Shown: piece after piece, positions 11,065-33,668 of the stretch
Layout of the letters: every line of letters starts with the position of its first letter
Position numbering within the stretch: the first letter of the stretch is position 1
From: Candidatus Binatia bacterium
GTDB lineage: Bacteria; Desulfobacterota; Binatia; Bin18
Direction: 5' to 3'
NCBI GenBank assembly: GCA_041487975.1
Contig: JBGPOI010000001.1
Location: 1-41,516 of the forward strand
Length of the DNA: 41,516 nt
Notes under the pieces: model-generated
Told to the model about the DNA's origin: nothing
Databases searched by the model: none
The model's input: only the letters and a program-made list of their open reading frames with translations
Translations under genes and position numbers: made by a program

Positions 11065-12198
11065 TCAACGGGGCTTCACCACTTGGGGGATGGTAACGGC
11101 CAGGCGTTCGGCCAACATGTGCGAGAGGTTCAGCAGTACCTTTGCAGCAACGGTAGGCTCCTGGGCAATGACTCGATTGAGGAATTCGCCCGAAAGCACG
11201 ATCATCTCGCACGGCGCTTTAGCCACCACATTGGCAGTACGTGGCTTCGCCGTAAAGAAGCTGATCTCGCCGAAGGTATCACCAGCGCCCAGGACCGCCA
11301 GGGGATGGTCGGGTACTTCGGCCAGCACCACTTCCGCAATGCCCGACAGGAGCACAAACACCGCGTTGCCCTGCTCACCCTGCCTCACAATATGATCGCC
11401 CGGCTCCGCCTTGATGAGAGTGGCCTTCGCGAGAAACCGTTCGGCTTCCACGCGGTCGAGACCGTATAACAGCCGCAAACCGTGCAACGGGTCGGTCGCA
11501 ACACGATCGCACAGCATGTCGAAGAACACCCCTTCTGGAAGGAAGGATGCCGTCTCGAAGGCCAGATACTCAGGGTAGGCGCGCTCAAACCATGCCCGTA
11601 CCTCTGGGTCATCGGGATAGCGCGTCGCAACCCGCAGCAGAGGTGACCGGACTCGCTCGAACCGTTGCCGGTCCCGCACGAGCATCAGAATCAAGATCTT
11701 GAAGCCATAGGTAGTGTCATTGTACGCCTGTCTGTAGCGCCGGTAGCCCATATGCTCGTAGAACGGGAGCAGATGCGGGCTGCAATCGCCGTAATTTAGC
11801 CGGACACCACGAGCCATCGCCTCCTCGTATGCAGTCTCCATCAACCGAAGGATCGCCGTGCCGTGACGAAGCCGAGGATGGAGGATGAACCGGCTCGTCG
11901 TGCCAATGGCGGAGCGACCCAGCGCCTCGATCGCCAGCTCCAGCCCGAACTTTTCGACAAGGGGCGTGGGATCGGGCACATCGTCGAGGACTGTGGTCCG
12001 CAGAGACCCCACCACCTCTCCCTCATCGAGGAGAGCATGGGAGACGCTTACGTCATCGAGCGGGTCCCAGAGCCGCTTGCGCGTGTGGTCTGCCTCAGGC
12101 GGCGAAAGCCCTAATTCTTCAACGTAGGCACGATAACGGAAAGCGAAGATTTTCTCCCGCTCCCCTTCCGAACGCCCTGGTGCAACGGTCAATCCCAT
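11065..12198 (-). CDS. GNAT-fold N-acyltransferase (LuxI/FeeM/OlsB-like N-acyl amino acid synthase family) fused to a C-terminal cyclic-nucleotide-binding domain
   Basis: The N-terminal half (EREKIFAFRYRAYVEELGL...WDPLDDVSVSHALLDEGEVVGSLRTT...PFYEHMGYRRY) resembles N-acyl amino acid synthase/autoinducer-synthase-like GNATs. The C-terminal half is a canonical cNMP-binding beta-barrel (GDHIVRQGEQGNAVFVLLSG...GDTFGEISFFTAKPRTANVVA), with the FGE and R-T-A phosphate-binding cassette. Confidence 0.75.
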   Translation of the reverse strand: MGLTVAPGRSEGEREKIFAFRYRAYVEELGLSPPEADHTRKRLWDPLDDVSVSHALLDEGEVVGSLRTTVLDDVPDPTPLVEKFGLELAIEALGRSAIGTTSRFILHPRLRHGTAILRLMETAYEEAMARGVRLNYGDCSPHLLPFYEHMGYRRYRQAYNDTTYGFKILILMLVRDRQRFERVRSPLLRVATRYPDDPEVRAWFERAYPEYLAFETASFLPEGVFFDMLCDRVATDPLHGLRLLYGLDRVEAERFLAKATLIKAEPGDHIVRQGEQGNAVFVLLSGIAEVVLAEVPDHPLAVLGAGDTFGEISFFTAKPRTANVVAKAPCEMIVLSGEFLNRVIAQEPTVAAKVLLNLSHMLAERLAVTIPQVVKPR

Positions 12199-17004: not shown

Positions 17005-17194
17005 CAACGCCTCACGCCCTATAGAACTGACGAGAGCCAGCACGTCTAGCAGCCCGAAGAAGGATAGTCTAAATTTAGCTGGTGATCTGCCGATTCCAAG
17101 GTAGGACCTTGAAAAGGGTCCTGGGATAACCTGCCTGGGAAAAACTCTCACGAGTTTTAGCTGACTGAGTGTAGTGAAAGGAGAAACAGCCCGC

Positions 17195-18889
17195 ATGTCT
17201 ACTCGCCTGGGTGAGTTGCTAGTGCGCAAGGGGTACATCACTCCTGAGCAGTTACGCAAAGCGATCGAAGAACAGCGGGTACATGGAGGACCTCTCAATG
17301 AGCATTTGGTCAAGCTCGGGTGTTTCACCGAAGACGTCCTGCTCGCCTATTTGCAAAGAGAGTATCGCCTGTCTACCGCCGATCCCGCTAATTTGGAAAT
17401 CTCTGGCGAAGTCATTCAGTTAGTTCCGCATGCGCTGGTAACGAAGTATCACCTGATCCCAATCTCTCTGAACGGCTCCAGCCTGACTCTTGCCATGGCT
17501 GATCCCTCTAATATGGTCGCCGTGGACGAAGTCAAGTTTCTCACTGGGGCTGACATCAAGATCGTTCTGGCGACGAGTTCCTCCATCAAACGGGCAGTTG
17601 AACGGTTCTATGACCGAGCCATGAAGTACGATCACGTGCTCAATGACCTGAGGGGCCAGGAGGTGGAGGTCGTCCGGGATCAAGGCGAAATTGATCTTCA
17701 GGAGTTGGAGCGGGCCACCGAGGACGCACCGGTTGTCCGACTGGTAAACGCTATTTTCACCGATGCGCTGCGGAAGCGGGCGAGCGACATTCACATCGAG
17801 CCCTATGAGCAGATCTTTCGGGTGCGCTTTCGTATTGACGGGGTGCTGTCCGAGATCCTGCAGCCGCCGCTCGCGCTCAAGGCCGCCGTGGTTTCGCGCC
17901 TCAAGGTCATGGCTTCCCTTGATATTGCCGAGCGCCGCTTGCCCCAGGATGGTCGCATCAAGATCAAATTGGGCCCAGCTGATGCGATGGATATCCGCGT
18001 CTCTGTATTGCCCACCTTGTTCGGCGAAAAGATCGTCATGCGTCTTCTCGACAAATCCCAGTTGCAAACCGATATGCTGAAGCTGGGATTTGAAGAACAG
18101 GCGCTCAAGGACTTTAAGGAAGGGATTTATAGACCCTATGGGATGGTGTTGGTCACCGGCCCCACGGGGTCTGGGAAGACCACAACATTGTACTCAGCTC
18201 TGTCCGAACTGAATAAGATTACCACGAACATCTCGACTGCCGAGGATCCGGTGGAATTCAACCTTCCCGGTATCAATCAGGTCCTGGTCAATGAAGACAT
18301 CGGTTTGACGTTCGCCGCCGCTCTCCGCGCTTTCCTGCGCCAGGATCCGGACATCATCATGGTGGGCGAGATCCGCGACCGCGAGACCGCTGAGATCGGC
18401 GTCAAAGCGGCGCTCACCGGCCATTTGGTCCTCTCTACCGTACACACGAACGATGCCCCTTCCACGATCAACCGGCTACTCAACATGGGGGTCGCACCCT
18501 TTCTCGTCGCCTCCTCAGTCAACCTGATTGTGGCTCAGCGTCTTGCCCGGAGAATCTGCTCCAGGTGTAAGGTCGATCAGCCGATCACGCCCCAAGCGCT
18601 GCTCGATCTGGGGGTGCCTCCGGAAGAGACGAAGACGTATGATTGCAAGCATGGTCTTGGCTGCCCTGATTGTGGAGGCTCCGGTTATCGTGGCCGCGTG
18701 GCTCTCTACGAGGTCATGCCGCTGTATGAAGAGATCCGAGAACTGGTGCTCTCTGGCGCCTCAACCCCGGAAATTAAACGCGCGGCCATGAGCCGGGGAG
18801 TGAAGACGCTACGCCAGAGTGGGCTCAGCAAAGTGCGCGAGGGCGTTACCACCCTTGAAGAGGTGATGCGAGTGACGATGGCTGATTAG
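17195..18889 (+). CDS. pilB: Type IV pilus assembly ATPase PilB (GspE family) with an MshEN-type N-terminal domain
   Basis: Walker A (GPTGSGKTTT), Walker B/Asp box (DPDIIMVGEIRD), His box (TGHLVLSTVHTNDA) and a tetracysteine motif (CSRCK...CPDCGGSG). The N-terminus is RLGELLVRKGYITPEQLRKAIEEQ. AAAGGAGA RBS before ATG 17195. Confidence 0.95.
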   Translation: MSTRLGELLVRKGYITPEQLRKAIEEQRVHGGPLNEHLVKLGCFTEDVLLAYLQREYRLSTADPANLEISGEVIQLVPHALVTKYHLIPISLNGSSLTLAMADPSNMVAVDEVKFLTGADIKIVLATSSSIKRAVERFYDRAMKYDHVLNDLRGQEVEVVRDQGEIDLQELERATEDAPVVRLVNAIFTDALRKRASDIHIEPYEQIFRVRFRIDGVLSEILQPPLALKAAVVSRLKVMASLDIAERRLPQDGRIKIKLGPADAMDIRVSVLPTLFGEKIVMRLLDKSQLQTDMLKLGFEEQALKDFKEGIYRPYGMVLVTGPTGSGKTTTLYSALSELNKITTNISTAEDPVEFNLPGINQVLVNEDIGLTFAAALRAFLRQDPDIIMVGEIRDRETAEIGVKAALTGHLVLSTVHTNDAPSTINRLLNMGVAPFLVASSVNLIVAQRLARRICSRCKVDQPITPQALLDLGVPPEETKTYDCKHGLGCPDCGGSGYRGRVALYEVMPLYEEIRELVLSGASTPEIKRAAMSRGVKTLRQSGLSKVREGVTTLEEVMRVTMAD

Positions 18890-18927: not shown

Positions 18928-18993
18928 ATGCCCGCGCAGGCGGGCATCCGGAAACCCTGCCCCGTCGCCCTGGATTCCCGCTTTCGCGGGAAT
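18928..18993. repeat. Two short perfect hairpin modules (A: ATGCCCGC-gcag-GCGGGCAT; B: ATTCCCGC-tttc-GCGGGAAT)
   Basis: Module A is at 18928-18947 and module B at 18974-18993. Both recur inverted and in swapped order at 22688-22731. Confidence 0.85.
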
Positions 18994-19032
18994 GACGCAG
19001 CAACTGCCTATGAATGTGTCTCAATCCCGCCC

Positions 19033-19229: not shown

Positions 19230-20450
19230 ATGGCGATCTTTCGTTGGCAAGGGATCGGTTCCCGCGGAGAAACGATTCAAGGAGAGATGGAGGCGACTAC
19301 GCGTGAGGCGGTGATCTCGCGTCTGCGGAATCAGCGTATCAGGGCGCTCCCAGATCGTATCCGTGAAAAAGGCAAAGGATTCGACAGGGAGATCAAGATC
19401 CCGGGATTCGGCGAGAAAGTCAAGCCGAAGGACGTCATGATCTTCACCCGCCAGCTTGCCACCATGATCGATGCCGGCCTGCCCATCGTGCAGGGACTCG
19501 ATATCCTTGCCCAGCAGACCCCTAACAAAACGTTCGCCAAGATCATCAGACAGGTCAAACAAGACGTGGAAAGCGGCTCGACATTCGCGGAATCCTTGAA
19601 GAAGCATCCCAAGGTGTTCGACGACTTGTACACCAACATGGTAGCCGCTGGAGAGGCCGGCGGAATCCTCGATAACATCCTGACCCGTCTGACCCAGTAC
19701 ATAGAAAAGTCCGTCAAGCTGAAGTCCAAGATCAAGGGGGCCATGATCTACCCCGCCAGCATCGTCATCGTGGCTGTAGGAGTAACCGCCATTTTGCTCA
19801 TCTACGTGATCCCGGTCTTTGCCGACATGTTCTCCAGCTTCGGCAAGGCGCTACCCCTACCCACACAAATTGCCATCAATCTCAGCTATATCACGATCGC
19901 TTATTTTCATTATATTATCGCCGCGGCGATCAGTGCTGTCTTCGGCCTACGGATGAGCTATCGTACCGAGAAAGGTCGGTTTGCCATCGATGGCATGATA
20001 CTCAAGCTCCCCATCTTCGGCGACCTTTTTCGCAAGACCGCGGTGGCACGCTTCACGCGCACTCTCAGCACTTTGCTCTCGTCCGGGGTGCCGGTACTCG
20101 ACGCCCTCCTCATTACTGGCAGAACGGCCGGCAACAAAGTGGTCGAGAAGGCGGTATTTGATGCGCGTCAGAGCATCAGTGAAGGGAAGACTCTCTCTAC
20201 CCCTCTCGCGGAAAGTCGGATATTCCCTTCGATGGTGTGCCAAATGATCAACGTCGGCGAGACCACCGGCGCGCTTGACTCCATGCTCATCAAGATCGCC
20301 GACTTCTATGACGAAGAGGTGGACAACGCCGTCGCCAATCTTACCGCCTTGATGGAACCAGTGGTGATAGTATTCCTCGGTGTTGTTATTGGTGGCCTGG
20401 TGATTTCGATGTACTTGCCGATCTTCAAACTCGGCTCCGTCCTGTCATAA
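19230..20450 (+). CDS. pilC: Type IV pilus inner-membrane platform protein PilC (GspF family)
   Basis: Two GspF repeats (AAGEAGGILDNIL and VGETTGALDSML) and three TM segments; 406 aa. Confidence 0.95.
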   Translation: MAIFRWQGIGSRGETIQGEMEATTREAVISRLRNQRIRALPDRIREKGKGFDREIKIPGFGEKVKPKDVMIFTRQLATMIDAGLPIVQGLDILAQQTPNKTFAKIIRQVKQDVESGSTFAESLKKHPKVFDDLYTNMVAAGEAGGILDNILTRLTQYIEKSVKLKSKIKGAMIYPASIVIVAVGVTAILLIYVIPVFADMFSSFGKALPLPTQIAINLSYITIAYFHYIIAAAISAVFGLRMSYRTEKGRFAIDGMILKLPIFGDLFRKTAVARFTRTLSTLLSSGVPVLDALLITGRTAGNKVVEKAVFDARQSISEGKTLSTPLAESRIFPSMVCQMINVGETTGALDSMLIKIADFYDEEVDNAVANLTALMEPVVIVFLGVVIGGLVISMYLPIFKLGSVLS

Positions 20451-20459
20451 GGAACCGTT

Positions 20460-22472
20460 ATGCTGGAAGCTGAGAACGACTTGCGTCGGCGGTTGGAGTG
20501 GTTCCTGCTGCTGCGAGTAGGGATCACGACGGGCCTGCTCGGCACGTCAGTTTGGCTCTATTACTACTCGTTCGGCGGGGTTGACACGTCGTCCGGCAGG
20601 GTCGTGCTGAGCGCGATCGCCGTCATCTACTTCATCTCTTTGTCATCCGCCCTTCTCCTTTCCCGGGTGCGCGATCTGACGCTGTTCGCGTACGGGCAGG
20701 TCGTCCTCGACACCTTGTTTATTACCGGCATTGTGCTGCTCACGGGCGGGCTCGATAGTCCCTTCTCCTTTTTTTACAACCTGTCCATCCTGAACGCCGC
20801 GTTCCTGTTGTACCGGCATGGCGCGCTGGTGGCCGCGTCTTTGGCCGCTCTCTGTTACGGGGGCACTATCGATCTCCTGTATTATCGGATCCTCCCGCCC
20901 ACGGGATTCATGCCGCTCTCATTCCTGGGTACGAGTTCTGCTCCCAATATGCAGCTCACTATCAGATTGGTGGTGAATTTATCCTCGTTCTATGTCATCG
21001 CGTTCCTCGGCAGTTACCTCACACAGCGGCTCTCAAAGGCTGAAACCCTGCTCGCCGAACGGGATGTGGCGCTCGGCCGTCTCTCCTCGCTCTATCAAGG
21101 TGTGATAAAAACCCTGGATAAGGGTGTCTTGATCGCCGATGCCAACGGCATCATCGAATATGCCAACGGCTCTATAGCGGAGATCGTCGGCTCTACGCCG
21201 AGCGCACTGACCGGGCAACTGGTGGACGACATTCTCCCTGAACTGGATCTGAGCCAACCCAGCTATACACCGCTCGAGTTTACCTTCCAGAGAGAGGACA
21301 GCAACACTGAACGAACCTTGCGCGCTACTCTTTCACCCCTGAACGACACCTACGGCAACCGCTTTGGCGCGCTGTACAGCGTGCAGGACGTGACCAGCGT
21401 CAAGGAGATGGAACGCGGCTTGCGAGAAGCCGAAGAACTGGAACGCGCGACCGTCCTGGAAGGACCGGTGGAACTCGACTCGTTCGCCGGTCTGATCGGG
21501 CGAAGCGAGGCCATGCGTAAGGTGTATCGGGTTATCACCAAGGTTGCTGAATGCACCACCACCGTGCTGATCACCGGTGAGAGCGGTACGGGCAAAGAGC
21601 TGGTCGCGCGCGCGATCCACGACAAAGGTCCACGCGCCGCGCGCCCCTTTGTGCCGGTCAACTGCGGCGCCATCCCGGCTGCTTTAATGGAGAGCGAGAT
21701 ATTCGGTCATGTCAAAGGCGCCTTCACCGGCGCGGTGAGTGACCGGACCGGACTGTTTCGTCAAGCCGATGGCGGCACCTTGTTTCTCGACGAGGTCGGC
21801 GAACTGCCGTTGACGCTCCAGGTCAAACTCCTGCGTGTGTTGCAAGATCATGAGGTCGTCCCGGTCGGCGGGAGCAAGGGAGCCCGGGTGGATGTCCGCG
21901 TGCTGGCGGCAACCAATAAAAACCTGGAAAAGGAAGTCGCCGCCGGGCGCTTCCGCGAGGATCTCTTTTACCGTCTCAATGTCATTCGTATTGCCTTGCC
22001 GCCGCTGCGTGAGCGCGAGGGCGACCTCCCCCTTTTACTCCGTCAGCTCATCAACCGTTTTGCCGAAGCGAACGGCAAGATCATCGACAAGATCTCGCCG
22101 TTGGCCATGCGCGCGCTCCTCGACTACCCCTACCCCGGCAACATCCGCGAGTTGGAAAACGTGATCCAACTGGCTGTGACGATGGCGGAAGCAGAGACGA
22201 TTCAGCTCGCTGACCTGCCTGCCCGTCTGCAGCAAGACTCGGCTCAGTTCCGTCCTGATTTGTCTGTTGCCGGGAGCCCGCAAAGTCAAAGCGCCGATCC
22301 CGACTTCTTCAGCAAAGGGGTCAGCCTCGATGCCGAACTAGAGGCCTACGAGCAGAACATTCTGCGCGCAGCCCTGGAAAAATCCGGCGGGATCCAGAAA
22401 AAGGCGGCCGAGTTCCTCGGCATCAACTACCGCTCATTGCGACACCGCCTGCAGAAATACAACCTCTCCTGA
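20460..22472 (+). CDS. Membrane-anchored sigma54-dependent activator: PilS-like 6-TM sensor + PAS + AAA+ (GAFTGA) + Fis-type HTH, with no HisKA/HATPase and no receiver domain
   Basis: Residues 1-200 contain six hydrophobic helices. A PAS-like segment follows (GVLIADANGIIEYANGSIAEIVG). The sigma54-interaction domain has GESGTGKELVARAIH, ESEIFGHVKGAFTGA and GGTLFLDEVGEL. The C-terminal HTH reads KKAAEFLGINYRSLRHRLQKY. The gene occupies the pilS-pilR position between pilC and the pilin genes. Confidence 0.85.
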   Translation: MLEAENDLRRRLEWFLLLRVGITTGLLGTSVWLYYYSFGGVDTSSGRVVLSAIAVIYFISLSSALLLSRVRDLTLFAYGQVVLDTLFITGIVLLTGGLDSPFSFFYNLSILNAAFLLYRHGALVAASLAALCYGGTIDLLYYRILPPTGFMPLSFLGTSSAPNMQLTIRLVVNLSSFYVIAFLGSYLTQRLSKAETLLAERDVALGRLSSLYQGVIKTLDKGVLIADANGIIEYANGSIAEIVGSTPSALTGQLVDDILPELDLSQPSYTPLEFTFQREDSNTERTLRATLSPLNDTYGNRFGALYSVQDVTSVKEMERGLREAEELERATVLEGPVELDSFAGLIGRSEAMRKVYRVITKVAECTTTVLITGESGTGKELVARAIHDKGPRAARPFVPVNCGAIPAALMESEIFGHVKGAFTGAVSDRTGLFRQADGGTLFLDEVGELPLTLQVKLLRVLQDHEVVPVGGSKGARVDVRVLAATNKNLEKEVAAGRFREDLFYRLNVIRIALPPLREREGDLPLLLRQLINRFAEANGKIIDKISPLAMRALLDYPYPGNIRELENVIQLAVTMAEAETIQLADLPARLQQDSAQFRPDLSVAGSPQSQSADPDFFSKGVSLDAELEAYEQNILRAALEKSGGIQKKAAEFLGINYRSLRHRLQKYNLS

Positions 22473-22504
22473 AGGCCTTACCTGGCGGTACAGCTCCTCA
22501 AACG

Positions 22505-22524
22505 CTCGGCGATCAATCGCCGAG
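22505..22524 (+). terminator. Hairpin after the activator gene (weak terminator candidate)
   Basis: CTCGGCGA-tcaa-TCGCCGAG, a perfect 8-bp stem 32 nt after the stop. No U-tract follows. Confidence 0.3.
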
Positions 22525-22600
22525 CTACACAACAGCGCTCTCTTAGAGCAGTTTGCAATTGCGTCTACCCTATCAGCAGGCACTGGCGTCGACCCTGGTG

Positions 22601-22642
22601 GCGCAGGCCGCTGGCCTGCGTGCGCAGCCGAGCCGGTTGCGC
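22601..22642. repeat. Hairpin modules D (GCGCAGGCC-gct-GGCCTGCG) and E (GCGCAGCCG-agc-CGGTTGCGC)
   Basis: The two modules are adjacent here and recur at 24263-24331 in the order E...D. Confidence 0.85.
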
Positions 22643-22687
22643 CACTACAGCTTCACGGAGAGAACCCAGCTTCCCCTTTCCCCTGAA

Positions 22688-22731
22688 TGCCCGCCTGCGC
22701 GGGCAGACGTCATTCCCGCGAAAGCGGGAAT
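22688..22731. repeat. Second copies of hairpin modules A and B
   Basis: TGCCCGC-ctgc-GCGGGCA (22688-22705) and ATTCCCGC-gaaa-GCGGGAAT (22712-22731). Both loops are reverse complements of the 18928-18993 copies. Confidence 0.85.
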
Positions 22732-22739
22732 CTAGAGCC

Positions 22740-22788
22740 GTAGGGGCACATGGCCAGTGGAAAAGCCAGGCCGAAGCCATGCCCCTAC
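22740..22788. repeat. REPIN-like inverted doublet
   Basis: GTAGGGGCACATGGC ... GCCATGCCCCTAC, with GTAGGGG/CCCCTAC heads on the outside. Confidence 0.75.
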
Positions 22789-22861
22789 CTGGCATGCACA
22801 GAAAATAGCAGCGTGCAGGGGAGACGTGCGCACAGCGCACGCTACGCTTCTTGTGGGTGCC

Positions 22862-22969
22862 GTTTTGTAGGGGCTTGATTCATCAAGCCCTTTGGCGGGT
22901 CCGATGAATCGGACCCCTACACCTTCCGGAACGCGAATCCCTGTGCTGGAGTCAAACTGAACCACTACC
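22862..22969. repeat. 108-bp repeat, left copy (IR-L), containing a GTAGGGG...CCCCTAC doublet (22867-22920)
   Basis: My by-eye alignment to the reverse complement of 25774-25881 gives 101/108 identical positions, with the first 60 nt identical. Confidence 0.9.
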
Positions 22970-23031
22970 AGGAAGGCAGAGGCGCTGACTCTTGCCAAAC
23001 CGTCAAAGGATTAACAGCCAGGGACCGTAAT

Positions 23032-23084
23032 TTGTCATCATGGACGTTTCCGGCTCGTACGACAAAATTTTGCTCCGTTGTCAT
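23032..23084 (+). promoter_or_regulatory. Candidate enhancer (UAS) for the sigma54 activator: repeated TTGTCAT / TGTC motifs
   Basis: TTGTCAT occurs at 23032-23038 and 23078-23084, and GACA at 23061-23064. These lie 70-120 nt upstream of the -24/-12 promoter. An A/T-rich tract (23101-23150) follows and could bend DNA (IHF-like AATCATTTAATTT). Confidence 0.3.
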
Positions 23085-23151
23085 ATTCAGTTAAGCTGTT
23101 GAAATCATTTAATTTTCATCTTTTTTTCTGCGAGCGAAAAATTTTCCACTT

Positions 23152-23167
23152 TGGCACGCGCATTGCT
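23152..23167 (+). promoter_or_regulatory. sigma54 (-24/-12) promoter for the pilin genes
   Basis: TGGCAC-gcgca-TTGCT matches the TGGCAC-N5-TTGC(A/T) consensus exactly. It lies about 165 nt upstream of the pilin ATG. Confidence 0.8.
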
Positions 23168-23329
23168 CTTTCATCTGGCCAACAAAACCGACTTCCAGCG
23201 CGGCAACGCGCAAGCAAAATAAAGAAGAAAAGGAGGAAGCAGACCTCAAAAAAGAGCACGGTCGAGACGGGCACCAGTCGGCAACGAGGCGTATCCCCTT
23301 AACCCTAACCCTTGAAGGAGGAACATCGC

Positions 23330-23698
23330 ATGATTCGTAAGAATGAAAAAGGTTTCACCCTGATTGAGCTACTGGTCGTGATCGCCATCATCGGCATCCT
23401 GGCCGCCATCGCTATTCCGCAGTTCGCTGCGTATCGTAACACCGCGTTTTGTTCTCGACTCGAGTCCGACGTCACCAACGCCATGATCGCGGCAGAAGGC
23501 TACTATGCCCAGAATCAAACGTACCCGGCTGATACCACGGCGGCCAACTTCACCCCGAGTGGCACAGGAACAGAACAAAACTCAATCTCATTTGATGTGG
23601 GTCCCCCCTTTAAGGTCACTGGGACTGACGGTAGCGCAAATTGTCCCAAGGGCACTACCCTCACGTTTGCACAGGGCGGGTCACCAACGTATCCATAG
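23330..23698 (+). CDS. pilA: Type IVa pilin (probable major pilin)
   Basis: Class III signal MIRKNEKG|FTLIELLVVIAIIGILAAIAIPQF with Glu at mature position 5. GAAGGAGGA RBS 7 nt before ATG 23330. Two Cys residues in the globular part. Confidence 0.93.
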   Translation: MIRKNEKGFTLIELLVVIAIIGILAAIAIPQFAAYRNTAFCSRLESDVTNAMIAAEGYYAQNQTYPADTTAANFTPSGTGTEQNSISFDVGPPFKVTGTDGSANCPKGTTLTFAQGGSPTYP

Positions 23699-23749
23699 TC
23701 TTCTTGCACCCATTCAGCAGCCGGTATGGTTCTTATCGTGTTAAGGCTA

Positions 23750-23777
23750 CCCACCGGGCCGAGAGAGGCCCGGTGGG
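23750..23777 (+). terminator. Hairpin between the two pilin genes (terminator/attenuator)
   Basis: CCCACCGGGCC-gagaga-GGCCCGGTGGG, a perfect 11-bp GC-rich stem, followed by CTATTCTT. Confidence 0.6.
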
Positions 23778-23803
23778 CTATTCTTAAGGAAAAAGAAAAG
23801 AAG

Positions 23804-24151
23804 ATGAGCAGCCGAGGCTTTACTCTGATTGAATTGTTGGTTGTGATTGCCATCCTGGGCATCTTGGCTGCCGTGGCGATCCCCCAGTTCAGCCAATACA
23901 GGGGCACAGCCTACTGCGCACAGATCACCTCCGAGGCTTCCCACGCCTTTACGGCCATGGAAGCGTACTATACGCAGCACTTAACCTATGGTTCTCTGTC
24001 TGATACCAACTTTACTCCCACCAAGGACATCAGCGTAGTCATCACCAGCAAAGATCCCCTCATCGTGCAAGCCTCCGATGATAAAGACCGCTGCCCGTCG
24101 GGCACCATCTACACCCTCGATCAACACCGAGGAAGAGGGACATGGAGCTAA
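23804..24151 (+). CDS. Type IVa pilin paralog
   Basis: Signal MSSRG|FTLIELLVVIAILGILAAVAIPQF. Shares YY-x-Q-x-x-TY, NFTP and CP-x-GT motifs with the upstream pilin. Confidence 0.9.
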   Translation: MSSRGFTLIELLVVIAILGILAAVAIPQFSQYRGTAYCAQITSEASHAFTAMEAYYTQHLTYGSLSDTNFTPTKDISVVITSKDPLIVQASDDKDRCPSGTIYTLDQHRGRGTWS

Positions 24152-24262
24152 ATCCACAGGCGGCAAGCCTCCGCTTGTAGAACTGATCTTCCCTCTTTTA
24201 CTGTCTTCCCTGGTCGGTCTTATACCAAATCCCGAAAGATAGTTTTCTTTACCACCGGCCAC

Positions 24263-24331
24263 GCGCAGCCGAGCCGGCTGCGCCACCTGCTACCTGCTTG
24301 GCTTTTAGTGGCACAGGCCGCTGGCCTGTGC
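24263..24331. repeat. Hairpin modules E (GCGCAGCCG-agc-CGGCTGCGC) and D (GCACAGGCC-gct-GGCCTGTGC)
   Basis: Second copies of the 22601-22642 modules, in swapped order with a 27-nt spacer. Module D carries a compensatory G>A / C>T pair. Confidence 0.85.
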
Positions 24332-24367
24332 TGAGGTGAAGCCACACTCTCAAAAGGGGAGTTGGTC

Positions 24368-25768
24368 TTACCTGTTCAGGTCCTGCACCAACTCGAATAA
24401 GATCTGCGCGCCGTCGCGCAAACTGGCAAGCGGGATGCGCTCGTTGGTGCCGTGAACGCGACGCCCGTCTTCCTCAGAAAGCGCCAAACCGGTGAAGCCG
24501 TAACTCACGATCCCTTTGCGGCGGAAGTAATGCGAGTCGGTGAAGCCGCCGAGCACCGCCGGCACAACCGGCGCCTGGGGGTCATGCCGTTCGGCGATAC
24601 TGCGAATCGCGCGAAACAGCTCGGTGTCGGCCTCCGAAGCCAGAGGCGGGAAGTTCAGCAGAATAGAAAACCGTACCTCAGGGTCATCCACCACTTTTTC
24701 CAAGCCGGCAACGAACTGTTGCGGATCTTCACCCGGCAGCAGCCGGCAGTCGAGTTGTGCACGCGCATGGGCGGGGATGACGTTGGTTTTGTTGCTTCCC
24801 TCCAGCACCGTCGGGGAGATGGTGTTGCGCACCAGGGCGTTGTAGGTGGGGTTGGCAAGGAACTCTTTCCGAAACACCGGGTCGGTCAGCGCTCGTCCCA
24901 GGTCACGAAAACGCTCAGCCTTGGCCGGTTCTTCTTGTACAGCTAACGCGCTGAAGTAGGATTGCACGGCAGGAACGACTTTGACCTCGGTTTCGTAATG
25001 CAGGATTTTGTCGAGCGCTCGGATCAGGCGAGTGACGGCGGTCTCCGGCAAGGGCCGTGAACCGTGTCCGGCCGGACCGTTGGCTTCAAGCTGAATCCAG
25101 CAAGGTGCTTTCTCGGCGATATCGACATCGTACGACCGCTTGCCGTCATGGATGCGGATCGCACCGCCTTCAGTCAATAGAAATTCGGCATCGGCGATCA
25201 AGTCGAAATGATTCTCGACAAACCAGCCTGCCCCTTGGCGTCCGCCTTCCTCTTCGTCTGCCGTGCCGAGGAAGATGACGTCGCGTTTGAGCGGCGCCCC
25301 CAGACGTTTGAGCAAGACGAAAGCCATGAACTGCGTAGCGGCAACGCCTTTGCAGTCAATGGCGCCACGACCATACACATAGCCATCTTTGATCGTGCCG
25401 GCGAAAGGATCGACTTCCCAATCCGCTTTGACTGCGGGCACGACATCGAGATGGTGCAACAGAATAAAAGGCTTTTTCTCACCGGTGCCTTTGAGCCGGG
25501 CGTACACAACGCCGCGTCCGGGCTGTGACTCGAATACCTGTGCCTCCAGCCCCTCCTGCGCAAGCTGCTGCTTCCAGAAATTGGCGGCAGCGAGTTCGTT
25601 GCCCGGCGGATTGGTCGTGTCGATCTGGAGATAGTGGCTGAGCAGCTCACCGGCTTCTTTTTCGACCGCTACCCAGTCCGGCTCCGCAGGCCAAGCAAGA
25701 GACGCGGCAAAGAAGCAGAACAGCAAGAAGGCAAAGGGCAGAGGAATTTTTTTCAGCAGAGGTCTCAT
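24368..25768 (-). CDS. Secreted M20-family metallopeptidase
   Basis: Motifs LLHHLDVVPA, GRGAIDCKG and GTADEEEGG (M20 metal and catalytic residues). The track start is TTG 25786. ATG 25768 gives a clean signal peptide (MRPLLKKIPLPFAFLLFCFFAASLAWPAEP). Confidence 0.9.
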   Translation of the reverse strand: MRPLLKKIPLPFAFLLFCFFAASLAWPAEPDWVAVEKEAGELLSHYLQIDTTNPPGNELAAANFWKQQLAQEGLEAQVFESQPGRGVVYARLKGTGEKKPFILLHHLDVVPAVKADWEVDPFAGTIKDGYVYGRGAIDCKGVAATQFMAFVLLKRLGAPLKRDVIFLGTADEEEGGRQGAGWFVENHFDLIADAEFLLTEGGAIRIHDGKRSYDVDIAEKAPCWIQLEANGPAGHGSRPLPETAVTRLIRALDKILHYETEVKVVPAVQSYFSALAVQEEPAKAERFRDLGRALTDPVFRKEFLANPTYNALVRNTISPTVLEGSNKTNVIPAHARAQLDCRLLPGEDPQQFVAGLEKVVDDPEVRFSILLNFPPLASEADTELFRAIRSIAERHDPQAPVVPAVLGGFTDSHYFRRKGIVSYGFTGLALSEEDGRRVHGTNERIPLASLRDGAQILFELVQDLNR

Positions 25769-25773
25769 GGGCA

Positions 25774-25881
25774 GGTAGTGGTTCAATTTGATTCCAGTAC
25801 GAGGATTCGCGTTCCAGAAGATGTAGGGGTCCGATTCATCGGACCCGCCAAAGGGCTTGATGAATCAAGCCCCTACAAAAC
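25774..25881. repeat. 108-bp repeat, right copy (IR-R), inverted relative to 22862-22969
   Basis: Contains GTAGGGGTCCGAT..ATCGGACCC ... GGGCTTGAT..ATCAAGCCCCTAC (25823-25876). It begins only 5 nt upstream of the peptidase ATG. Confidence 0.9.
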
Positions 25882-29008: not shown

Positions 29009-29992
29009 TCAATGCCGGCGCTGAAACGGGAGCCGCCCGCGAGCCCAGGCAAGGAATACGAGACCGATTTTGCCGGCAGTTGCCAGAGTCACCCGAGCAG
29101 CGAACACATTGAAGTGCCGAACCGCCAGCTTATCAAGGAGCCGGCGATAGATGAGGCGCATCGCCTCGGCTGCTGCTAAGGAGCGGCGGTCCTCGGCGGC
29201 CAGATGAGTGACCGCTCGGTTGTAATACTCTCGTGCCCGCGCTGCCTCGAAAGTCATCAAGCGGACAAAGGCAGCATTGTACACGCCAGCGCAAAGTTCT
29301 TGCTCGCTATAGCCGAACCGATCGAGATCTTCTGCGGGGAGATAGATCCGGTCGCGGCGTGCGTCTTCTCGTACATCACGCAGGATATTGGTGAGCTGGA
29401 ACGCCACCCCCAAGTTGACCGCATAATCGCGGGCACCGCAATTGTGATAGCCAAAGATCTCGATGCACACCAGACCGACCAACGAGGCGACGTGGTAGCA
29501 GTAATCGTAGAGTTCGGCGAAAGTGTGGTAGCGCGTCTGGCGTAGATCCATCTCAACGCCGTCGATTATGCCCGCCAGATGTTCCTGGCGGATGGGAAAA
29601 CGCCGCACCACGTCCGTTAAGGCTTGCGAGATGGGGTGATGTGGGTTTCCTTCGTAGCAGCTGCGGAGTTCTTCACGCCAAGTTTGCAGCAAGATCGCTA
29701 GCTTTTCCGTCTTGTTGTCTGTCTGTTTGTGCTCGACCACCCTTTCGGGCTGGTCAGCAATGTCATCCAGAAACCGGCAGAAAGCATACAGCGCGCACAG
29801 GGCATTGTGCCGCTCCGCGGGCAGTAAACGGAAGGCGTGGTAAAAGTTGGAGGAGCTTTTCTGCGTGACCCGACGACAGTAGGCGTACGCGTCGGCCAGC
29901 GTGAAGGACGAAGAAGAAGGAAAAGAGGGAGAGAATTCCAGTCCCCGCCGTGTTGCTTCACCCTGGTTCACGGTTTTCCCCCTTCTCCCCAT
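29009..29992 (-). CDS. Squalene/phytoene synthase family enzyme (HpnD-like presqualene diphosphate synthase or one-step squalene synthase)
   Basis: Asp-rich motifs YAFCRFLDDIAD and NILRDVREDARRDRIYLP, plus N-terminal SSSNFYHAFRLLP. Same strand and operon context as shc. Confidence 0.88.
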   Translation of the reverse strand: MGRRGKTVNQGEATRRGLEFSPSFPSSSSFTLADAYAYCRRVTQKSSSNFYHAFRLLPAERHNALCALYAFCRFLDDIADQPERVVEHKQTDNKTEKLAILLQTWREELRSCYEGNPHHPISQALTDVVRRFPIRQEHLAGIIDGVEMDLRQTRYHTFAELYDYCYHVASLVGLVCIEIFGYHNCGARDYAVNLGVAFQLTNILRDVREDARRDRIYLPAEDLDRFGYSEQELCAGVYNAAFVRLMTFEAARAREYYNRAVTHLAAEDRRSLAAAEAMRLIYRRLLDKLAVRHFNVFAARVTLATAGKIGLVFLAWARGRLPFQRRH

Positions 29993-30004: not shown

Positions 30005-31186
30005 TCAGGCAGAAGCCGCAGCACGAGGCTGGGTAATACCCAAGGCTTCGCGCACTTGGGTCCGGGCCCAACGATCCGCCTCCAGCAGATCACCGAGGTT
30101 AGTCACAGGCTGTGTATTGTGGGCATCCAGTACGCGCCGATTGAGCGCAGCAATATCGAGAAAGCGAAGCTGGCCGGCGAGGAAGCTTGCCACCGCAACC
30201 TCGTTAGCGGCGTTCAGAACCGTTGGGCACGTGCCGCCGCGCGCGAGCGCTTCGTAGGCGAGCCCGAGACAGGGAAACTTGGCGAAATCCGGCTGGAAAA
30301 AAGTCAGTTGCGCGGTGGCAGCCAAATCAAGGGCAGGTAAGTGAGTCAGCGGCAAGCGATCAGGGTAGGCAAGGATGTAAGAAATGGGGATTGCCATGTC
30401 GGGAATGCCAAGCTGGGCCAGCACGGAACCGTCCACATACTCGACCATCGAGTGGACGACACTTTGGGGGTGGATGATCACCGCTACCTGCTCTGGAGGC
30501 AGGTCGAAAAGCCAGCGGGCCTCGATGACTTCCAGACCCTTGTTCATCAAGGTCGCGGAGTCGATCGTAATCTTGTTCCCCATCTTCCAAGTCGGGTGCT
30601 GGAGTGCTTGCTCGACACTCGCCGTGGCAAGTTCCTCGATCGGGCGGCGCAGGAACGGGCCACCGGAGGCGGTCAGAATGATTCGCTTCACACCTTCGCG
30701 AGCATGCCCCTGCAACGCTTGAAAAATGGCATTATGCTCGCTATCGACTGGCAAGAGGCGTACCCCGTGCTGCTTTGCTTCCCGAGTCATCAGTTCGCCA
30801 GCAATCACCAATGCCTCTTTGTTTGCCAAGGCGATTGTTTTGCCTGCCCGGATCGCCGCTAGAGTGGGCGGCAAGCCAGCCGCGCCCACTAAGGCAGCCA
30901 TGACCATATCCGCCTCAGGGTGGGTCGCAACGGCGAGCAGTCCTTCTGCGCCACAGAGAATCTCTCCGCCAAATCCTGGAAGGTGCGCGCGGAGATCCTT
31001 TGCATCGGCCTCACTGGTGATCGACACAAGTTCCGGCTGAAAGAGGCGGACTTGTTCTTTGAGCTTCTCCAGATTCTTGCCTGCGGCCAGAGCCACCACG
31101 CGAAAACAGTCAGGAAACCGCTCCACAATGGACAAAGTGGTCACTCCGATCGAACCGGTGGCCCCCAAAACAGCCAGCTTCTTCAT
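30005..31186 (-). CDS. dxr: 1-deoxy-D-xylulose-5-phosphate reductoisomerase
   Basis: Motifs MKKLAVLGATGSIG (NADPH site), LLPVDSEHNAIFQ and HPQSVVHSMVEY. I prefer ATG 31186, which forms an ATGA overlap with the yjbQ stop. The track start is 31234. Confidence 0.96.
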   Translation of the reverse strand: MKKLAVLGATGSIGVTTLSIVERFPDCFRVVALAAGKNLEKLKEQVRLFQPELVSITSEADAKDLRAHLPGFGGEILCGAEGLLAVATHPEADMVMAALVGAAGLPPTLAAIRAGKTIALANKEALVIAGELMTREAKQHGVRLLPVDSEHNAIFQALQGHAREGVKRIILTASGGPFLRRPIEELATASVEQALQHPTWKMGNKITIDSATLMNKGLEVIEARWLFDLPPEQVAVIIHPQSVVHSMVEYVDGSVLAQLGIPDMAIPISYILAYPDRLPLTHLPALDLAATAQLTFFQPDFAKFPCLGLAYEALARGGTCPTVLNAANEVAVASFLAGQLRFLDIAALNRRVLDAHNTQPVTNLGDLLEADRWARTQVREALGITQPRAAASA

Positions 31187-31683
31187 TGCATCCCCCCGTT
31201 TGCGGGGAACTGCCGGCTGTCCTTTTTTTTCCATTCAGGCAGCTCGAGCGCAGCCCCCACTCCCATGAACTGCATTCGTAGCGAACGGAGGCGGGGACCG
31301 TCAAGCTCCGCAAAAACTATGCGCTGAAATTGGCCCAACACCAAGCGTCCGTTTTCAACTTGCAGTGCCAGGGAGCCGCCGAGCAAGATCGACCGCAGAT
31401 GCGCAGCCGCGTTCTGCCGATCGCAGTCAGAAAATCGTGGGTCGTTATGTTTGTACCCCGCGCGTTCTTCCACGAGATGGCGGAGAAACGCATCCACATC
31501 GTCCCACAGGGCATCCTGAACCTCGGTGAAAAACATCCCAGTGGTGGTGTGCAGCGTGGAAACTACGCCCATACCGTTCCATACTCCACTCTCAGCGAGG
31601 AATCCCTTCACTTCGTTGGTAAGATCAAAGAGTTGTACTTTCTCAGCAGTCTGAAGTTGTAGCGTCTTGGCTTTAATCAACAC
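31183..31683 (-). CDS. yjbQ: YjbQ/UPF0047 family protein ('secondary thiamine-phosphate synthase')
   Basis: Motifs HTTTGMFFTEVQD and AAAHLRSILLGGSLALQVENGRLVLGQFQRIVFAELDGPR, as in the YjbQ family. AAGGAGA is followed by GTG 31689 or GTG 31683; the second has proper spacing. Confidence 0.85.
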   Translation of the reverse strand: MLIKAKTLQLQTAEKVQLFDLTNEVKGFLAESGVWNGMGVVSTLHTTTGMFFTEVQDALWDDVDAFLRHLVEERAGYKHNDPRFSDCDRQNAAAHLRSILLGGSLALQVENGRLVLGQFQRIVFAELDGPRLRSLRMQFMGVGAALELPEWKKKDSRQFPANGGMQ

Positions 31684-31706: not shown

Positions 31707-33668
31707 TCAGCCTTCATCATTCCCCATATGTTCCCTCACGCGTGTGCGGAACTGTCCTAAAGCCATCAGCGGGAAATAGTTCCGGTACCCGTAGTAGCGC
31801 AGGTAAAAATGGCGAGGAAATCCTGTTCCGGTAAACAGCTCCTCAGGCCATGAGCCGACGGTTTCCTGCCGCGCTAGTAAATAAGCGATCCCCCGGAGGA
31901 CCACTGGGCTGATCTCATCTTCCGCGGCGAGCAGCCCGAGCACAGCCCAGGCGGTCTGGGATGGAGTACTCTCTCCTTTCCCTGCTTTGCTCTGATCCCA
32001 ATATGACAGGCAGTCTTCCCCCCAGCCACCGTCTGGGTTTTGCCGTTCTTTGAGCCAGGCCACGGCACGTTGAACGTAAGGACGATCCATATCCTCACCG
32101 ATCGCGCGCAGCCCAACCAAAACCGACCACGTACCATAAATGTAATTGACCCCCCAGCGTCCCCACCAGGAGCCGTCTTGCTCTTGTATCTCGCGCAGAA
32201 AATCAAGCGCTCTACGGGCTCGACGGAAGTCTCGGTCATACCCGAACGTTCCCATCATCTCGAGCAGCCGGCCAGTCAAATCAGCAGTCGGCGGATCAAT
32301 CATCGCCTTCATGTCGCCAAACGGCATCTGGTTCCACACGTCCAGAGTATTGTCAGTATCAAATGCCCCCCAGCCACCGTTACGACTCTGCATACCCAGG
32401 GTCCAATTCAGTCCGCGGGCAATTGCCTGGTCCTTCTTGCGCTCATCCACACTTGTCACGCGCTTGAGGGTGAAAAGGATCACCGCAGAGTCATCTACAT
32501 CCGGGTACCAATCATTAGCGAACTCGAAAGCCCATCCCCCGGGTTCCAATTCGGGGTTCTTAATTTGCCAGTCGCCAGTTTTGAAAATTTGGTTGTCGAT
32601 GATCCAGTTCGCCGCTTTGGTGACCACAGGGTGGTCGGTGGGAAAACTCGAGTCGAGCAGAGCCTTGATCGCCCATATCGTATCCCACAGCGGGGAGACG
32701 CACGGCTGGAAGAACAGGTGTCCACCAGTTTCCATGAGAAAATCTTCGATCGCCTGGATACCTTTTGCGACTGCGGGATGGTCATGCGGATAGCCAAGAC
32801 TACGCAGCGCCATCACCGAGTTGAGCATCGCCGGCTGAATGCCACCCCACCCACCGTTGACGTCTTGGTGGTCCACCACCCACCGTTCGGCTTTGCTCAA
32901 CGCCCGCTTCCGCAAAGGTTTCACTGGGCTTCTCGCCAAAAACTTCAGCAACTTGTCCACGACGATAAAGAAGTTTCCCCAGGAAACGAGTTGGGAAGAA
33001 TAGGGAAAGCTCAGGTCAGATTGTTCAGGCGGATCTTTCCAGAGTTCGGTCACGCCGCAAGAGGCAGGGATAGCAATGGAAGGCCGGTGGGCCAGTATAA
33101 TACTGAGCGGCACCACTGTGCCTCGAGCCCAACTGGACATTTCGTAAATATTAAGAGGGAACCACGCTGGTAGGAGCACAACCTCAACCGGGAGGGCGGG
33201 AACCCCATGCCAGGGAAACTGGCCAAAGTACGCAAGGAATATGCGGGTGAAGACCTGGGCTTTAGCTAGCCCGCCTTGGACTAAAATAAATTCCCGAGCC
33301 TTGACCAAGGCGGGATGATCGGCAGAGTAGCCGGTCAATTTAAGCGCAAAGTAGGCTTCAATAGTAATGCCGAGATGACCCGGCCCCTTGTCGAACAGCG
33401 ACCAGGCACCATCGTCCGCCTGGACCGCCAACAAGTGCTCACAGATACGCTTGTGCTTCTTCTCATCCACCAGGCCCATGAAGTGATTGAAAAAGATGTA
33501 CTCGGCGTCCATGGTGGCGTTCGCCTCGAGGGGATAGTACCAGTAGCCCTCAGGCTTTTGCTCACGACGGAAATACTCCTGAGCCCGCAGGATGGTGCTA
33601 TCCAGGCTGCGGAGAAGTTCGTCATCCCCAGCAGTTATTTTGGCAGGGAACCCCTCTTGTTGTGACAC
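31707..33668 (-). CDS. shc: Squalene-hopene cyclase
   Basis: Catalytic DxDD motif (WYPDVDDSAV) and multiple QW repeats (e.g. MQSRNGGWGAFD, IQEQDGSWWGRWG, RQNPDGGWGE). 653 aa with a GTG start preceded by GGAG. Confidence 0.97.
   Translation of the reverse strand: MSQQEGFPAKITAGDDELLRSLDSTILRAQEYFRREQKPEGYWYYPLEANATMDAEYIFFNHFMGLVDEKKHKRICEHLLAVQADDGAWSLFDKGPGHLGITIEAYFALKLTGYSADHPALVKAREFILVQGGLAKAQVFTRIFLAYFGQFPWHGVPALPVEVVLLPAWFPLNIYEMSSWARGTVVPLSIILAHRPSIAIPASCGVTELWKDPPEQSDLSFPYSSQLVSWGNFFIVVDKLLKFLARSPVKPLRKRALSKAERWVVDHQDVNGGWGGIQPAMLNSVMALRSLGYPHDHPAVAKGIQAIEDFLMETGGHLFFQPCVSPLWDTIWAIKALLDSSFPTDHPVVTKAANWIIDNQIFKTGDWQIKNPELEPGGWAFEFANDWYPDVDDSAVILFTLKRVTSVDERKKDQAIARGLNWTLGMQSRNGGWGAFDTDNTLDVWNQMPFGDMKAMIDPPTADLTGRLLEMMGTFGYDRDFRRARRALDFLREIQEQDGSWWGRWGVNYIYGTWSVLVGLRAIGEDMDRPYVQRAVAWLKERQNPDGGWGEDCLSYWDQSKAGKGESTPSQTAWAVLGLLAAEDEISPVVLRGIAYLLARQETVGSWPEELFTGTGFPRHFYLRYYGYRNYFPLMALGQFRTRVREHMGNDEG

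Follow-up and report, generated by a model that had tools for sequence, protein, structure and literature searches.

A single gene joining a PilS-like membrane sensor to a predicted sigma-54 activator in the pilin locus of a Candidatus Binatia bacterium

A PilS-type sensor and an activator output in one gene

The DNA analysed here is a stretch of 41,516 nucleotides from a Candidatus Binatia bacterium (contig JBGPOI010000001.1 of assembly GCA_041487975.1, positions 1 to 41,516), which we call the window. Between the type IV pilus gene pilC and a pilin gene it carries one open reading frame (ORF) in which a PilS-like membrane sensor runs into the output half of an enhancer-binding protein of bacteria (bEBP), the class of activators that work with sigma-54. 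A preliminary description, made from the sequence alone, had placed a single protein of 670 amino acids (aa) in the slot of pilS and pilR, and the ORF occupies exactly 20460-22472 on the plus strand. It has 670 codons, begins with ATG and is preceded by an AAGGA ribosome-binding site. Its start codon lies 9 nt past the stop codon of pilC, so the two genes are probably co-transcribed. An assembly or frameshift artefact was ruled out because many independent assemblies carry the same ORF. The gene and its parts are as follows.

20460-22472, plus strand: fusion gene for a 670-aa membrane-integral, predicted sigma-54 activator made of a PilS sensor module and a bEBP output module (ORF list, Pfam, motifs, AlphaFold2)
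20472-21050, plus strand, aa 5-197: 6TM_PilS domain (Pfam PF25323, E = 4e-16, above the gathering score; hydropathy; AlphaFold2 helices)
21090-21404, plus strand, aa 211-315: cytoplasmic PAS domain, PAS_4/PAS (Pfam, above the gathering score; AlphaFold2 fold at 222-310)
21393-21491, plus strand, aa 312-344: fusion junction (BLASTP, AlphaFold2, limits of homology)
21492-22247, plus strand, aa 345-596: Sigma54_activat AAA+ domain and lid (Pfam, 6e-72 and 4e-24, respectively)
22338-22460, plus strand, aa 627-667: Fis-type HTH_8 DNA-binding domain (Pfam, 8e-12)

Within the output half, Pfam sets the limits of Sigma54_activat at aa 345-511 and those of AAA_lid_14 at aa 517-596. The six transmembrane (TM) segments and the PAS domain are those of a PilS kinase, but the HisKA/DHp domain with its phospho-histidine and the HATPase_c domain are missing, and after residue 345, where a kinase would have HATPase_c, the sequence is AAA+. 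The N-terminal receiver with a phospho-aspartate, as found in PilR, is missing as well. Pfam returned no match to HisKA, HATPase_c or Response_reg in the 670-aa protein even at E <= 1, and there is no histidine among the 35 linker residues 311-345 between PAS and AAA+. A cryptic receiver or HisKA domain is ruled out by these searches, by the His-free linker and by the structural model, which leaves no room for either. The preliminary description was thus right that a PilS-like six-TM region and PAS domain are joined directly to an AAA+ domain and a Fis-type helix-turn-helix (HTH), with no H-box, HATPase or receiver; the junction peptide that it quoted lies at residues 316-352.

Transmembrane transcription regulators have been defined as single polypeptides that carry a DNA-binding domain together with one or more TM segments and lack two-component core domains (PMC10269533). 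With six TM helices, an HTH_8 domain and no HisKA, HATPase or REC domain, the fusion protein is a one-component regulator of this kind. NCBIfam models for NifA, NtrC and similar proteins align to the C-terminal half only, always under their equivalog cut-offs, and the PAS-containing PrdR and DhaR models are the only ones that extend back to about residue 200.

Topology and origin of the sensor half

The TM helices lie at about residues 14-36, 44-67, 73-95, 101-119, 122-141 and 165-188. Pfam, hydropathy and AlphaFold2 agree on the six, as expected from the earlier proposal of a membrane-embedded protein. The cytoplasmic loops hold 9 lysines and arginines and the periplasmic loops 1, which satisfies the positive-inside rule for an N-in/C-in topology and agrees with the need of the AAA+ domain to be cytoplasmic.

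From an alignment of 35 family members AlphaFold2 gave a model with a mean predicted local distance difference test (pLDDT) score of 77.5. In this model TM6 continues unbroken into the PAS domain as a helix spanning residues 164-218, and the PAS fold itself (222-310) shows the order beta-beta-alpha-alpha-alpha-beta-beta-beta. Past the PAS domain come a single 22-residue helix (312-333), a 10-residue joint of low confidence and the AAA+ domain; at the C-terminal end a disordered stretch (594-616) precedes the HTH. As modelled, the segment between PAS and AAA+ is one helix and not a hairpin, so that neither a DHp hairpin nor a receiver can fit there. The joint has pLDDT below 50 at residues 330-339, its sequence is not conserved and its length differs between subfamilies.

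The same 35-member alignment shows invariant residues in every module of the family. Near-invariant R19, Q80, D84, G96, S100 and P101 lie inside or at the edge of the TM bundle, and two of these, the arginine of TM1 (R19) and the aspartate of TM3 (D84), are near-invariant in PilS kinases and retained in the fusions.

We searched residues 1-340, without a word index, against 1.84 billion representatives (50% identity) and obtained 4,780 matches. The best 142 were sorted by motif classification, with a Pfam spot check of the nearest: 112 are kinases of 500-635 aa that have an H-box and G-boxes, 7 are fusions, and most of those left over are fragments. By Pfam the nearest relatives have the composition 6TM_PilS-PAS-HisKA-HATPase_c, and their JGI label is PilS. 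Residues 3-327 of the fusion align colinearly with the nearest kinase, P0127 (BLASTP, 35% identity, E = 5e-46). The homology stops at residue 327, the point at which HisKA of P0127 begins, ahead of the H-box. The signalling helix (312-333) is homologous up to residue 327 to the beginning of the DHp helix of PilS, so the linker helix of the fusion retains the first turns of that stem. Homology to bEBPs and PilR starts at about residue 342, locating the junction to within about 15 residues.

The output half

The AAA+ domain has intact Walker A (GESGTGKE, 373), ESEIFGH (411), GAFTGA (420) and Walker B (FLDEV, 442) motifs. Across the 35 members, F422 and T423 of the GAFTGA loop are invariant, and each of the other four (G420, A421, G424, A425) is either invariant or conserved to 90% or more. 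Foldseek matched the modelled AAA+ core to ZraR, FleQ, LuxO and NtrC1 with a target-normalised TM-score of about 0.9 and a root-mean-square deviation of about 2 Å. With an AAA+ domain bearing Walker A/B and GAFTGA, and an HTH encoded near a candidate upstream site and a -24/-12 promoter, the C-terminal half has the sequence features of a sigma-54 activator.

For a comparison with PilR we used four PilRs that are each encoded beside a PilS kinase. Residues 335-670 scored 308-328 bits against these four and at most 281 bits against any solved bEBP (NifA, FleQ, ZraR). Fusion residue 342 aligns with PilR residues at about 133-143, right after the receiver. The recognition helix of the fusion, INYRSLRHRLQKY, resembles PilR ISFRSLRYRLxKY and is unlike that of NifA or FleQ. 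In the AAA+ core, identity is 52-56% to the PilRs and 51-52% to NifA, FleQ and ZraR. JGI annotation names family members PilR.

The pilin control region

Downstream of the fusion gene lie a predicted target gene and two putative control elements.

23330-23698, plus strand: major pilin candidate, prepilin MIRKNEKG/FTLIELLVV..., the predicted target gene (N_methyl, 2e-11)
23152-23166, plus strand: putative sigma-54 promoter TGGCACgcgcaTTGC (-24/-12), the sole exact TGGCAC-N5-TTGC in the 41.5-kb window
23023-23084, plus strand: candidate upstream activator sequence (phylogenetic footprint across 8 loci)

The promoter lies 178 nt ahead of the pilin ATG (23330), and no sigma-70-like promoter was found within 20300-24400. 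The earlier estimate that the pilin promoter would be about 700 nt downstream of the fusion gene is close to the 680 nt that separate the stop codon from the sigma-54 promoter. In 7 distinct related loci, those with enough downstream sequence, an exact TGGCA[CT]-N5-TTGC is found 90-230 nt before the GFTLIELLVV pilin gene that follows the fusion. The two loci of the most distant subfamily have a variant, TGGCCT-N5-TTGC, before the pilin (L020, about 9225-9239; L021, about 9243-9257). The layout of promoter before pilin, with an upstream site ahead of the promoter, is repeated in nine other loci.

When the upstream regions are lined up at the -24 element, 8 of 8 loci share a block, GCCrTAATTTGTCAT-N6-CATTTTTTGTC, about 120 bp upstream of that element, within surroundings that cannot be aligned. 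The window has TGTCAT at 23033-23038, that is at -119 from the -24 element, as a TTTGTCAT-type upstream site; the background frequency of TGTCAT is 2.5e-4 per nt. Further half-sites of the TTGTC type occur at 23060-23073 (minus strand) and 23078-23084, and similar upstream sites are found in the distant subfamily too. Likewise, in canonical Desulfobacterota pilR-pilS-pilA loci TTGTCA/TGACA sites precede the sigma-54 promoter of the pilin by 110-220 bp. TGT-N11-AGA and GTCT elements are described for PilR sites, and GTCT/TGT elements are cited as their hallmarks (PMC6058289). From this layout we predict that the fusion controls the sigma-54 pilin promoter through TGTC-type upstream sites, in the manner of PilR.

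Distribution and origin of the family

A search over 5.8 billion proteins, clustered at 90% identity, found at least 117 clusters with the full architecture, down to 43% identity and all of 650-720 aa, and a later search added about 35. Overall the architecture occurs in more than 130 clusters (43-100% identity) with ATPase motifs intact. The fusion is thus not unique to the window, a point on which the preliminary description had called for a check of phylogenetic distribution. The proteins come from metagenome-assembled genomes (MAGs) of Binatia, Thermodesulfobacteriota, "Deltaproteobacteria" and Methylomirabilota. A scan of a genome collection with a 5-sequence N-terminal alignment gave 10 loci, all in MAGs, and provides a limited taxonomic picture. 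Three MAG records (L004, L008, L009) are titled "uncultured Enterobacteriaceae bacterium" (binchicken co-assemblies) though their genes are of the Binatia/Methylomirabilota type, almost certainly a taxonomic mislabel. Annotation pipelines call family members "response regulator PilR", "ZraR" or "sigma 54-interacting regulator".

When the sensor modules were placed in a neighbour-joining tree, all but one of 42 fusions (41) formed one pure clade among the 112 kinases. This clade was complete in 15 of 25 bootstraps, and 21 of 25 kept at least 38 of its members. The C-terminal halves of the main family formed a clade in 100 of 100 bootstraps. The single clade among PilS kinases indicates that the main fusion family arose once.

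The P0191 lineage (P0191, P0394 and possibly P0395) represents a second fusion of 6TM_PilS, PAS and bEBP domains, also without kinase core or receiver; P0394, on a separate contig, is 85% identical to P0191. Here the PAS domain passes straight into ...FQNLTPFSEEEQIFPEFIG... with no linker helix, and the sensor is placed outside the main fusion clade. The AAA+ core nests with canonical REC-containing PilRs in 198 of 200 bootstraps, with 67% identity to them against 56% to the main family. Because the junction differs, the sensor lies outside the clade and the AAA+ core lies within the PilRs, this lineage is probably an independent, younger fusion. The same 6TM_PilS and PAS sensor is joined in P0257 (751 aa) to a beta-lactamase-fold domain and DUF3471, another output that is not a kinase.

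Across the breadth of the family the fusion gene either follows pilC and precedes a pilin gene or sits in a pil cluster without a recognised adjacent pilin (L001, L003). Two kinds of synteny recur in relatives. One runs recO/PPDK/aroE, (pilB), pilC, fusion, pilin, YfhO; the other, Myxococcus-like, runs pilB, pilT, pilC, fusion, ABC-transporter genes, pilD, minor pilins. Genes for large YfhO-family membrane proteins directly follow the pilin at L002 12778-15237, L020 9805-12186 and L021 10609-12303, and the window has none; PMT/glycosyltransferase genes also occur in L020. Their position after the pilin hints at pilin glycosylation. At L001 12007-18611, on a 4.3-Mb contig, an unannotated 513-aa ORF and insertion sequence-type transposase genes come after the fusion instead of a pilin, and the locus seems rearranged.

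The preliminary description took pilS-pilR-pilA to be the standing order in such loci. The fusion does sit between pilC and pilA, as this order would have it, but the order itself is not universal in related lineages: L015 and L017-L019 have (greA)-pilR-pilS-pilin, and orphan pilS kinases with no adjacent pilR follow pilB-pilT-pilC at L014 6370-8067 and L016 7001-8686.

The surrounding window

The remaining features of the pil region are listed below.

17174-18889, plus strand: pilB, type IV pilus assembly ATPase (Pfam T2SSE, 3e-144, and an MshEN N-terminal domain)
19230-20450, plus strand: pilC, platform protein (Pfam T2SSF twice, 3e-71)
22473-23020, no strand assigned: GC-rich spacer with small dispersed repeats (repeat copies elsewhere in the window)
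23750-23777, plus strand: strong GC hairpin (11 bp, 10 of them G-C) with a T-rich tail, between the two pilin genes (sequence)
23804-24151, plus strand: second pilin gene, MSSRGFTLIELLVV... (N_methyl, 6e-10)

The order in the window is PPDK, aroE, pilB, pilC, fusion, pilin, hairpin and second pilin, followed by unrelated genes on the opposite strand. Among the 20 largest other ORFs scanned in the 41.5-kb window there was no second pilS or pilR, no kinase and no receiver-type bEBP, in line with the expectation that no separate pilS/pilR pair would be found here. rpoN is not present in the window. The hairpin at 23750-23777 resembles a terminator or attenuator and could set the relative amounts of the two pilins.

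The 680-nt gap between the fusion stop codon and the promoter is unusually long, the relatives having only about 170-400 nt, because small repeat elements fill 22473-23020. This spacer is filler and not part of the regulatory logic. Its repeats include an element of 108 nt (22862-22969) that recurs inverted and 94% identical at 25774-25881, a hairpin motif CGTCATTCCCGCGAAAGCGGGAATC found at both 22708-22738 and 18967-18997, and a 24-nt pair at 22622-22645 and 24263-24286. They look like miniature inverted-repeat transposable elements (MITE) or repetitive extragenic palindromes (REP), and they lengthen both the pilB-pilC spacer and the one that separates the fusion from the pilin. Rfam gave no match in the window.

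Elsewhere in the window, 7757-10909 (minus strand) encodes a 1050-aa MMPL/RND-type transporter with a sterol-sensing-like region and a C-terminal LolA_like/DUF1329 domain, and a separate DUF1329 protein is encoded at 36760-38022. Close by lie hopanoid and isoprenoid genes: squalene-hopene cyclase (31707-33668), squalene/phytoene synthase (29009-29992) and DXR (30005-31234). At 11065-12198 (minus strand) a 377-aa protein joins a FeeM-like N-acyl amino acid synthase to a cyclic-nucleotide-binding domain, an unusual pairing.

Proposed mechanism

Taken together, the domain composition and the promoter layout make it probable that the fusion is a functional one-component, integral-membrane sigma-54 activator that controls the adjacent pilin gene or genes and so serves pilin autoregulation. 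That direct coupling takes the place of the phosphorelay is a sound inference from the predicted domains, as had been proposed. Through its six TM segments PilS can interact directly with PilA, which serves pilin autoregulation, and PilR is hyperactivated when PilA is lost (PMC6058289). By homology with PilS, the membrane bundle of the fusion would read the inner-membrane pool of unassembled pilin. The PAS signalling helix would then directly allow or block assembly of the AAA+ domains into an active ring, without switching between kinase and phosphatase. bEBPs are commonly kept inactive by their N-terminal domains through a helical linker, and the gating envisaged would be analogous to that of NtrC1, DctD, NifA and DmpR, which are held inactive by N-terminal domains or coiled-coil linkers. 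When membrane pilin is low, rings would form at the inner membrane face and bind the site at about -120. Still tethered, the ring would touch the sigma-54 holoenzyme at 23152-23166 through a loop in the DNA and would open the pilin promoter; accumulating pilin would shut the activator off. Membrane-anchored one-component transcription regulators are common and are able to act on DNA from the membrane (PMC10269533). A speculative benefit of placing the regulator gene immediately upstream of its target is that the enhancer may be kept near the membrane-anchored activator.

Several observations weigh against this proposal or against parts of it. In a tree of AAA+ cores with NifA, FleQ and ZraR as outgroups we obtained a three-way split in which the main family is not placed inside PilR. 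It is therefore the HTH, the binding sites and the gene context that support the term "PilR-derived", and descent of the ATPase core from PilR is a possibility. The preliminary reading as a chimera of PilS and PilR accordingly holds for the PilS half and for the PilR-like DNA-binding helix, sites and context, and the AAA+ core may or may not be of PilR descent. Solved chains cover at most about a third of the fusion model in Foldseek. All known family members come from uncultured organisms, and in L001 no pilin adjoins the fusion gene. Between the upstream site and the promoter there is no consistent match to the consensus of integration host factor, the DNA being merely AT-rich. The assembly of a ring from six-TM protomers is without described precedent among bEBPs. 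Finally, membrane pilin as the signal is proposed by homology with PilS, and the PAS domain could bind something else.

This last point leads to a reading that we consider unlikely, in which the same membrane activator answers not to the pilin pool but to lipid state, redox or a small PAS ligand, with no autoregulation. The PAS domain is conserved, and the sensor module also occurs on unrelated outputs such as the beta-lactamase-fold protein P0257, which indicates that it can serve other pathways. Against it, residues near-invariant across PilS kinases are kept in the TM bundle, and the tight, persistent linkage to pilin genes is the arrangement expected of a pilin homeostat. Quite improbable in our judgement is that the membrane module serves as a tether and that the active species is a soluble PAS-AAA+-HTH or AAA+-HTH fragment, cut at residues ~330-344 or past TM6. 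The low-confidence, non-conserved joint at 330-339, variable in length among subfamilies, would suit such cleavage; a soluble hexamer would escape the geometry problem of a ring bearing 36 TM helices, and some membrane-bound transcription factors do operate by regulated proteolysis. Entries without the TM region exist as well (P0015, P0068, P0070), indistinguishable from truncated gene calls. However, membrane-tethered AAA+ rings occur in other families, for example FtsH, and none of the loci examined has a linked gene for a protease. The TM6-PAS and PAS-linker helices are conserved and continuous, as conformational signalling predicts, and membrane-bound regulators do act on DNA (PMC10269533).

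The orphan pilS genes without adjacent pilR in related lineages (L014, L016) show that pil regulators can be dispersed, and the recognition helix of the fusion is PilR-like. Both would suit an accessory modulator that works beside a canonical PilS/PilR encoded elsewhere, through mixed rings with PilR or competition for its sites. We hold this to be very improbable, since the fusion itself fills the regulator slot and carries all parts needed to activate alone, and no REC-type bEBP or PilS kinase lies in about 20 kb around any family locus examined. A decayed remnant of a pilS-pilR operon without regulatory role has a precedent in Rsp of Neisseria gonorrhoeae, a published fusion of this sort that the citing papers present as a remnant not controlling pilE. 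For the present family this is strongly disfavoured and scarcely credible, because a decaying gene would not keep its motifs, its promoter and its upstream site: architecture and invariant catalytic motifs are kept at 43-100% identity in more than 130 clusters, and the sigma-54 promoter and upstream site are conserved beside the fusion gene.

The reading as a one-component pilin regulator extends to a broader proposal, which we regard as evenly balanced between right and wrong. These proteins may be the first sigma-54 activators to be recognised as an integral-membrane family, with an AAA+ ring at the inner face built from protomers with the six-helix PilS bundle and gated by pilin occupancy in the bilayer. 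The phosphorelay would have collapsed to a path from TM bundle through PAS and the former DHp stem helix to AAA+, and gene placement may help to draw the enhancer towards the membrane. Independent fusions would then have recurred, in the main family, in the P0191 lineage and in Neisseria Rsp, as a solution that evolution reaches easily.

If so, the fusion offers a minimal natural test bed for pilin sensing by the PilS membrane domain, in which the output is transcription and no kinase/phosphatase balance or cross-talk intervenes. bEBP rings are assumed to be soluble, and a membrane-integral family raises the question of how hexamers assemble, bind the enhancer and touch sigma-54 polymerase at the membrane. 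The mapped junction illustrates how a two-component system is shortened into a one-component system, apparently more than once, and points to a PAS/DHp-stem output able to drive an AAA+ domain, which would be useful for sensor engineering. Current pipeline names hide both the absent receiver and the membrane domain.

Comparison with known systems

In the full-text literature (subscription journals not covered) we found no PilS-PilR fusion family and no membrane-anchored bEBP beyond Rsp. The proteins described here therefore appear, from their sequences, to form a so far undescribed family, conserved and evidently functional, of sigma-54 activators that are integral to the membrane and tied to pilin promoters.

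The closest system is PilS-PilR of Pseudomonas aeruginosa, Myxococcus xanthus, Geobacter sulfurreducens and Desulfobacterota MAGs. It has the same six-TM and PAS sensor module, a sigma-54 AAA+/Fis-HTH output with a similar recognition helix, the same genomic neighbourhood and the same type of target, a pilin gene preceded by a -24/-12 promoter and by upstream sites of the TGTC type. Unlike PilS-PilR, the fusion is one polypeptide and not two, and the activator is membrane-tethered. It lacks DHp/H-box, the catalytic ATP-binding domain and the receiver aspartate, so that phosphotransfer and a phosphatase switch are not to be expected. In the tree of AAA+ cores, with its three-way split, the core of the fusion forms a clade of its own and is not nested in the PilR clade.

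In N. gonorrhoeae RpoN is non-functional. In the gonococcal protein Rsp, nps (pilS) and npa (pilR) are fused (Carrick et al. 2000, cited by PMC6528607 and PMC10269533), which gives the idea of a one-protein union its precedent. As described in those citing papers, Rsp resembles the present family in having an N-terminal PilS membrane region and C-terminal PilR sequence, including the DNA-binding domain, in one protein. The same citations trace its likely origin to a two-component system by which piliation was formerly controlled, and they call it a remnant without control of pilE; it represses pilA expression according to PMC10269533. In contrast to Rsp as so described (a comparison by description and not by sequence), the family here is ancient, widespread, constrained and paired with intact sigma-54 promoters. 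Because the taxonomic distance is large, the fusion that gave rise to Rsp was almost certainly an independent event.

Transmembrane regulators such as ToxR, TcpP and CadC (Demey et al. 2023, PMC10269533) also combine TM segments and a DNA-binding domain in one chain. That survey suggests that membrane-bound one-component regulators may evolve from two-component systems, citing Rsp, and its main text mentions no sigma-54 AAA+ activator. Unlike the fusion, these regulators are mostly single-pass proteins with sigma-70-type winged-helix or HTH outputs, whereas the fusion has to oligomerise as an ATPase ring and to work on its promoter from afar through DNA looping.

The P0191 lineage has the same domain order as the main family but differs from it in its junction and in the affinity of its AAA+ core. 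Among one-component bEBPs, NifA and NorR (GAF), DmpR/XylR (V4R) and PrdR/AcoR/DhaR (PAS) place a sensory domain, a helical linker and AAA+ in the same order as the fusion. Its AAA+ fold is essentially identical to that of known bEBPs, and the control of ring assembly or ATPase exerted by the coiled-coil linkers of NtrC1 and DctD is presumably shared. Unlike all of these proteins, which are soluble, the fusion has an integral-membrane bundle as its sensor and a linker helix apparently inherited from the DHp stem of a histidine kinase.

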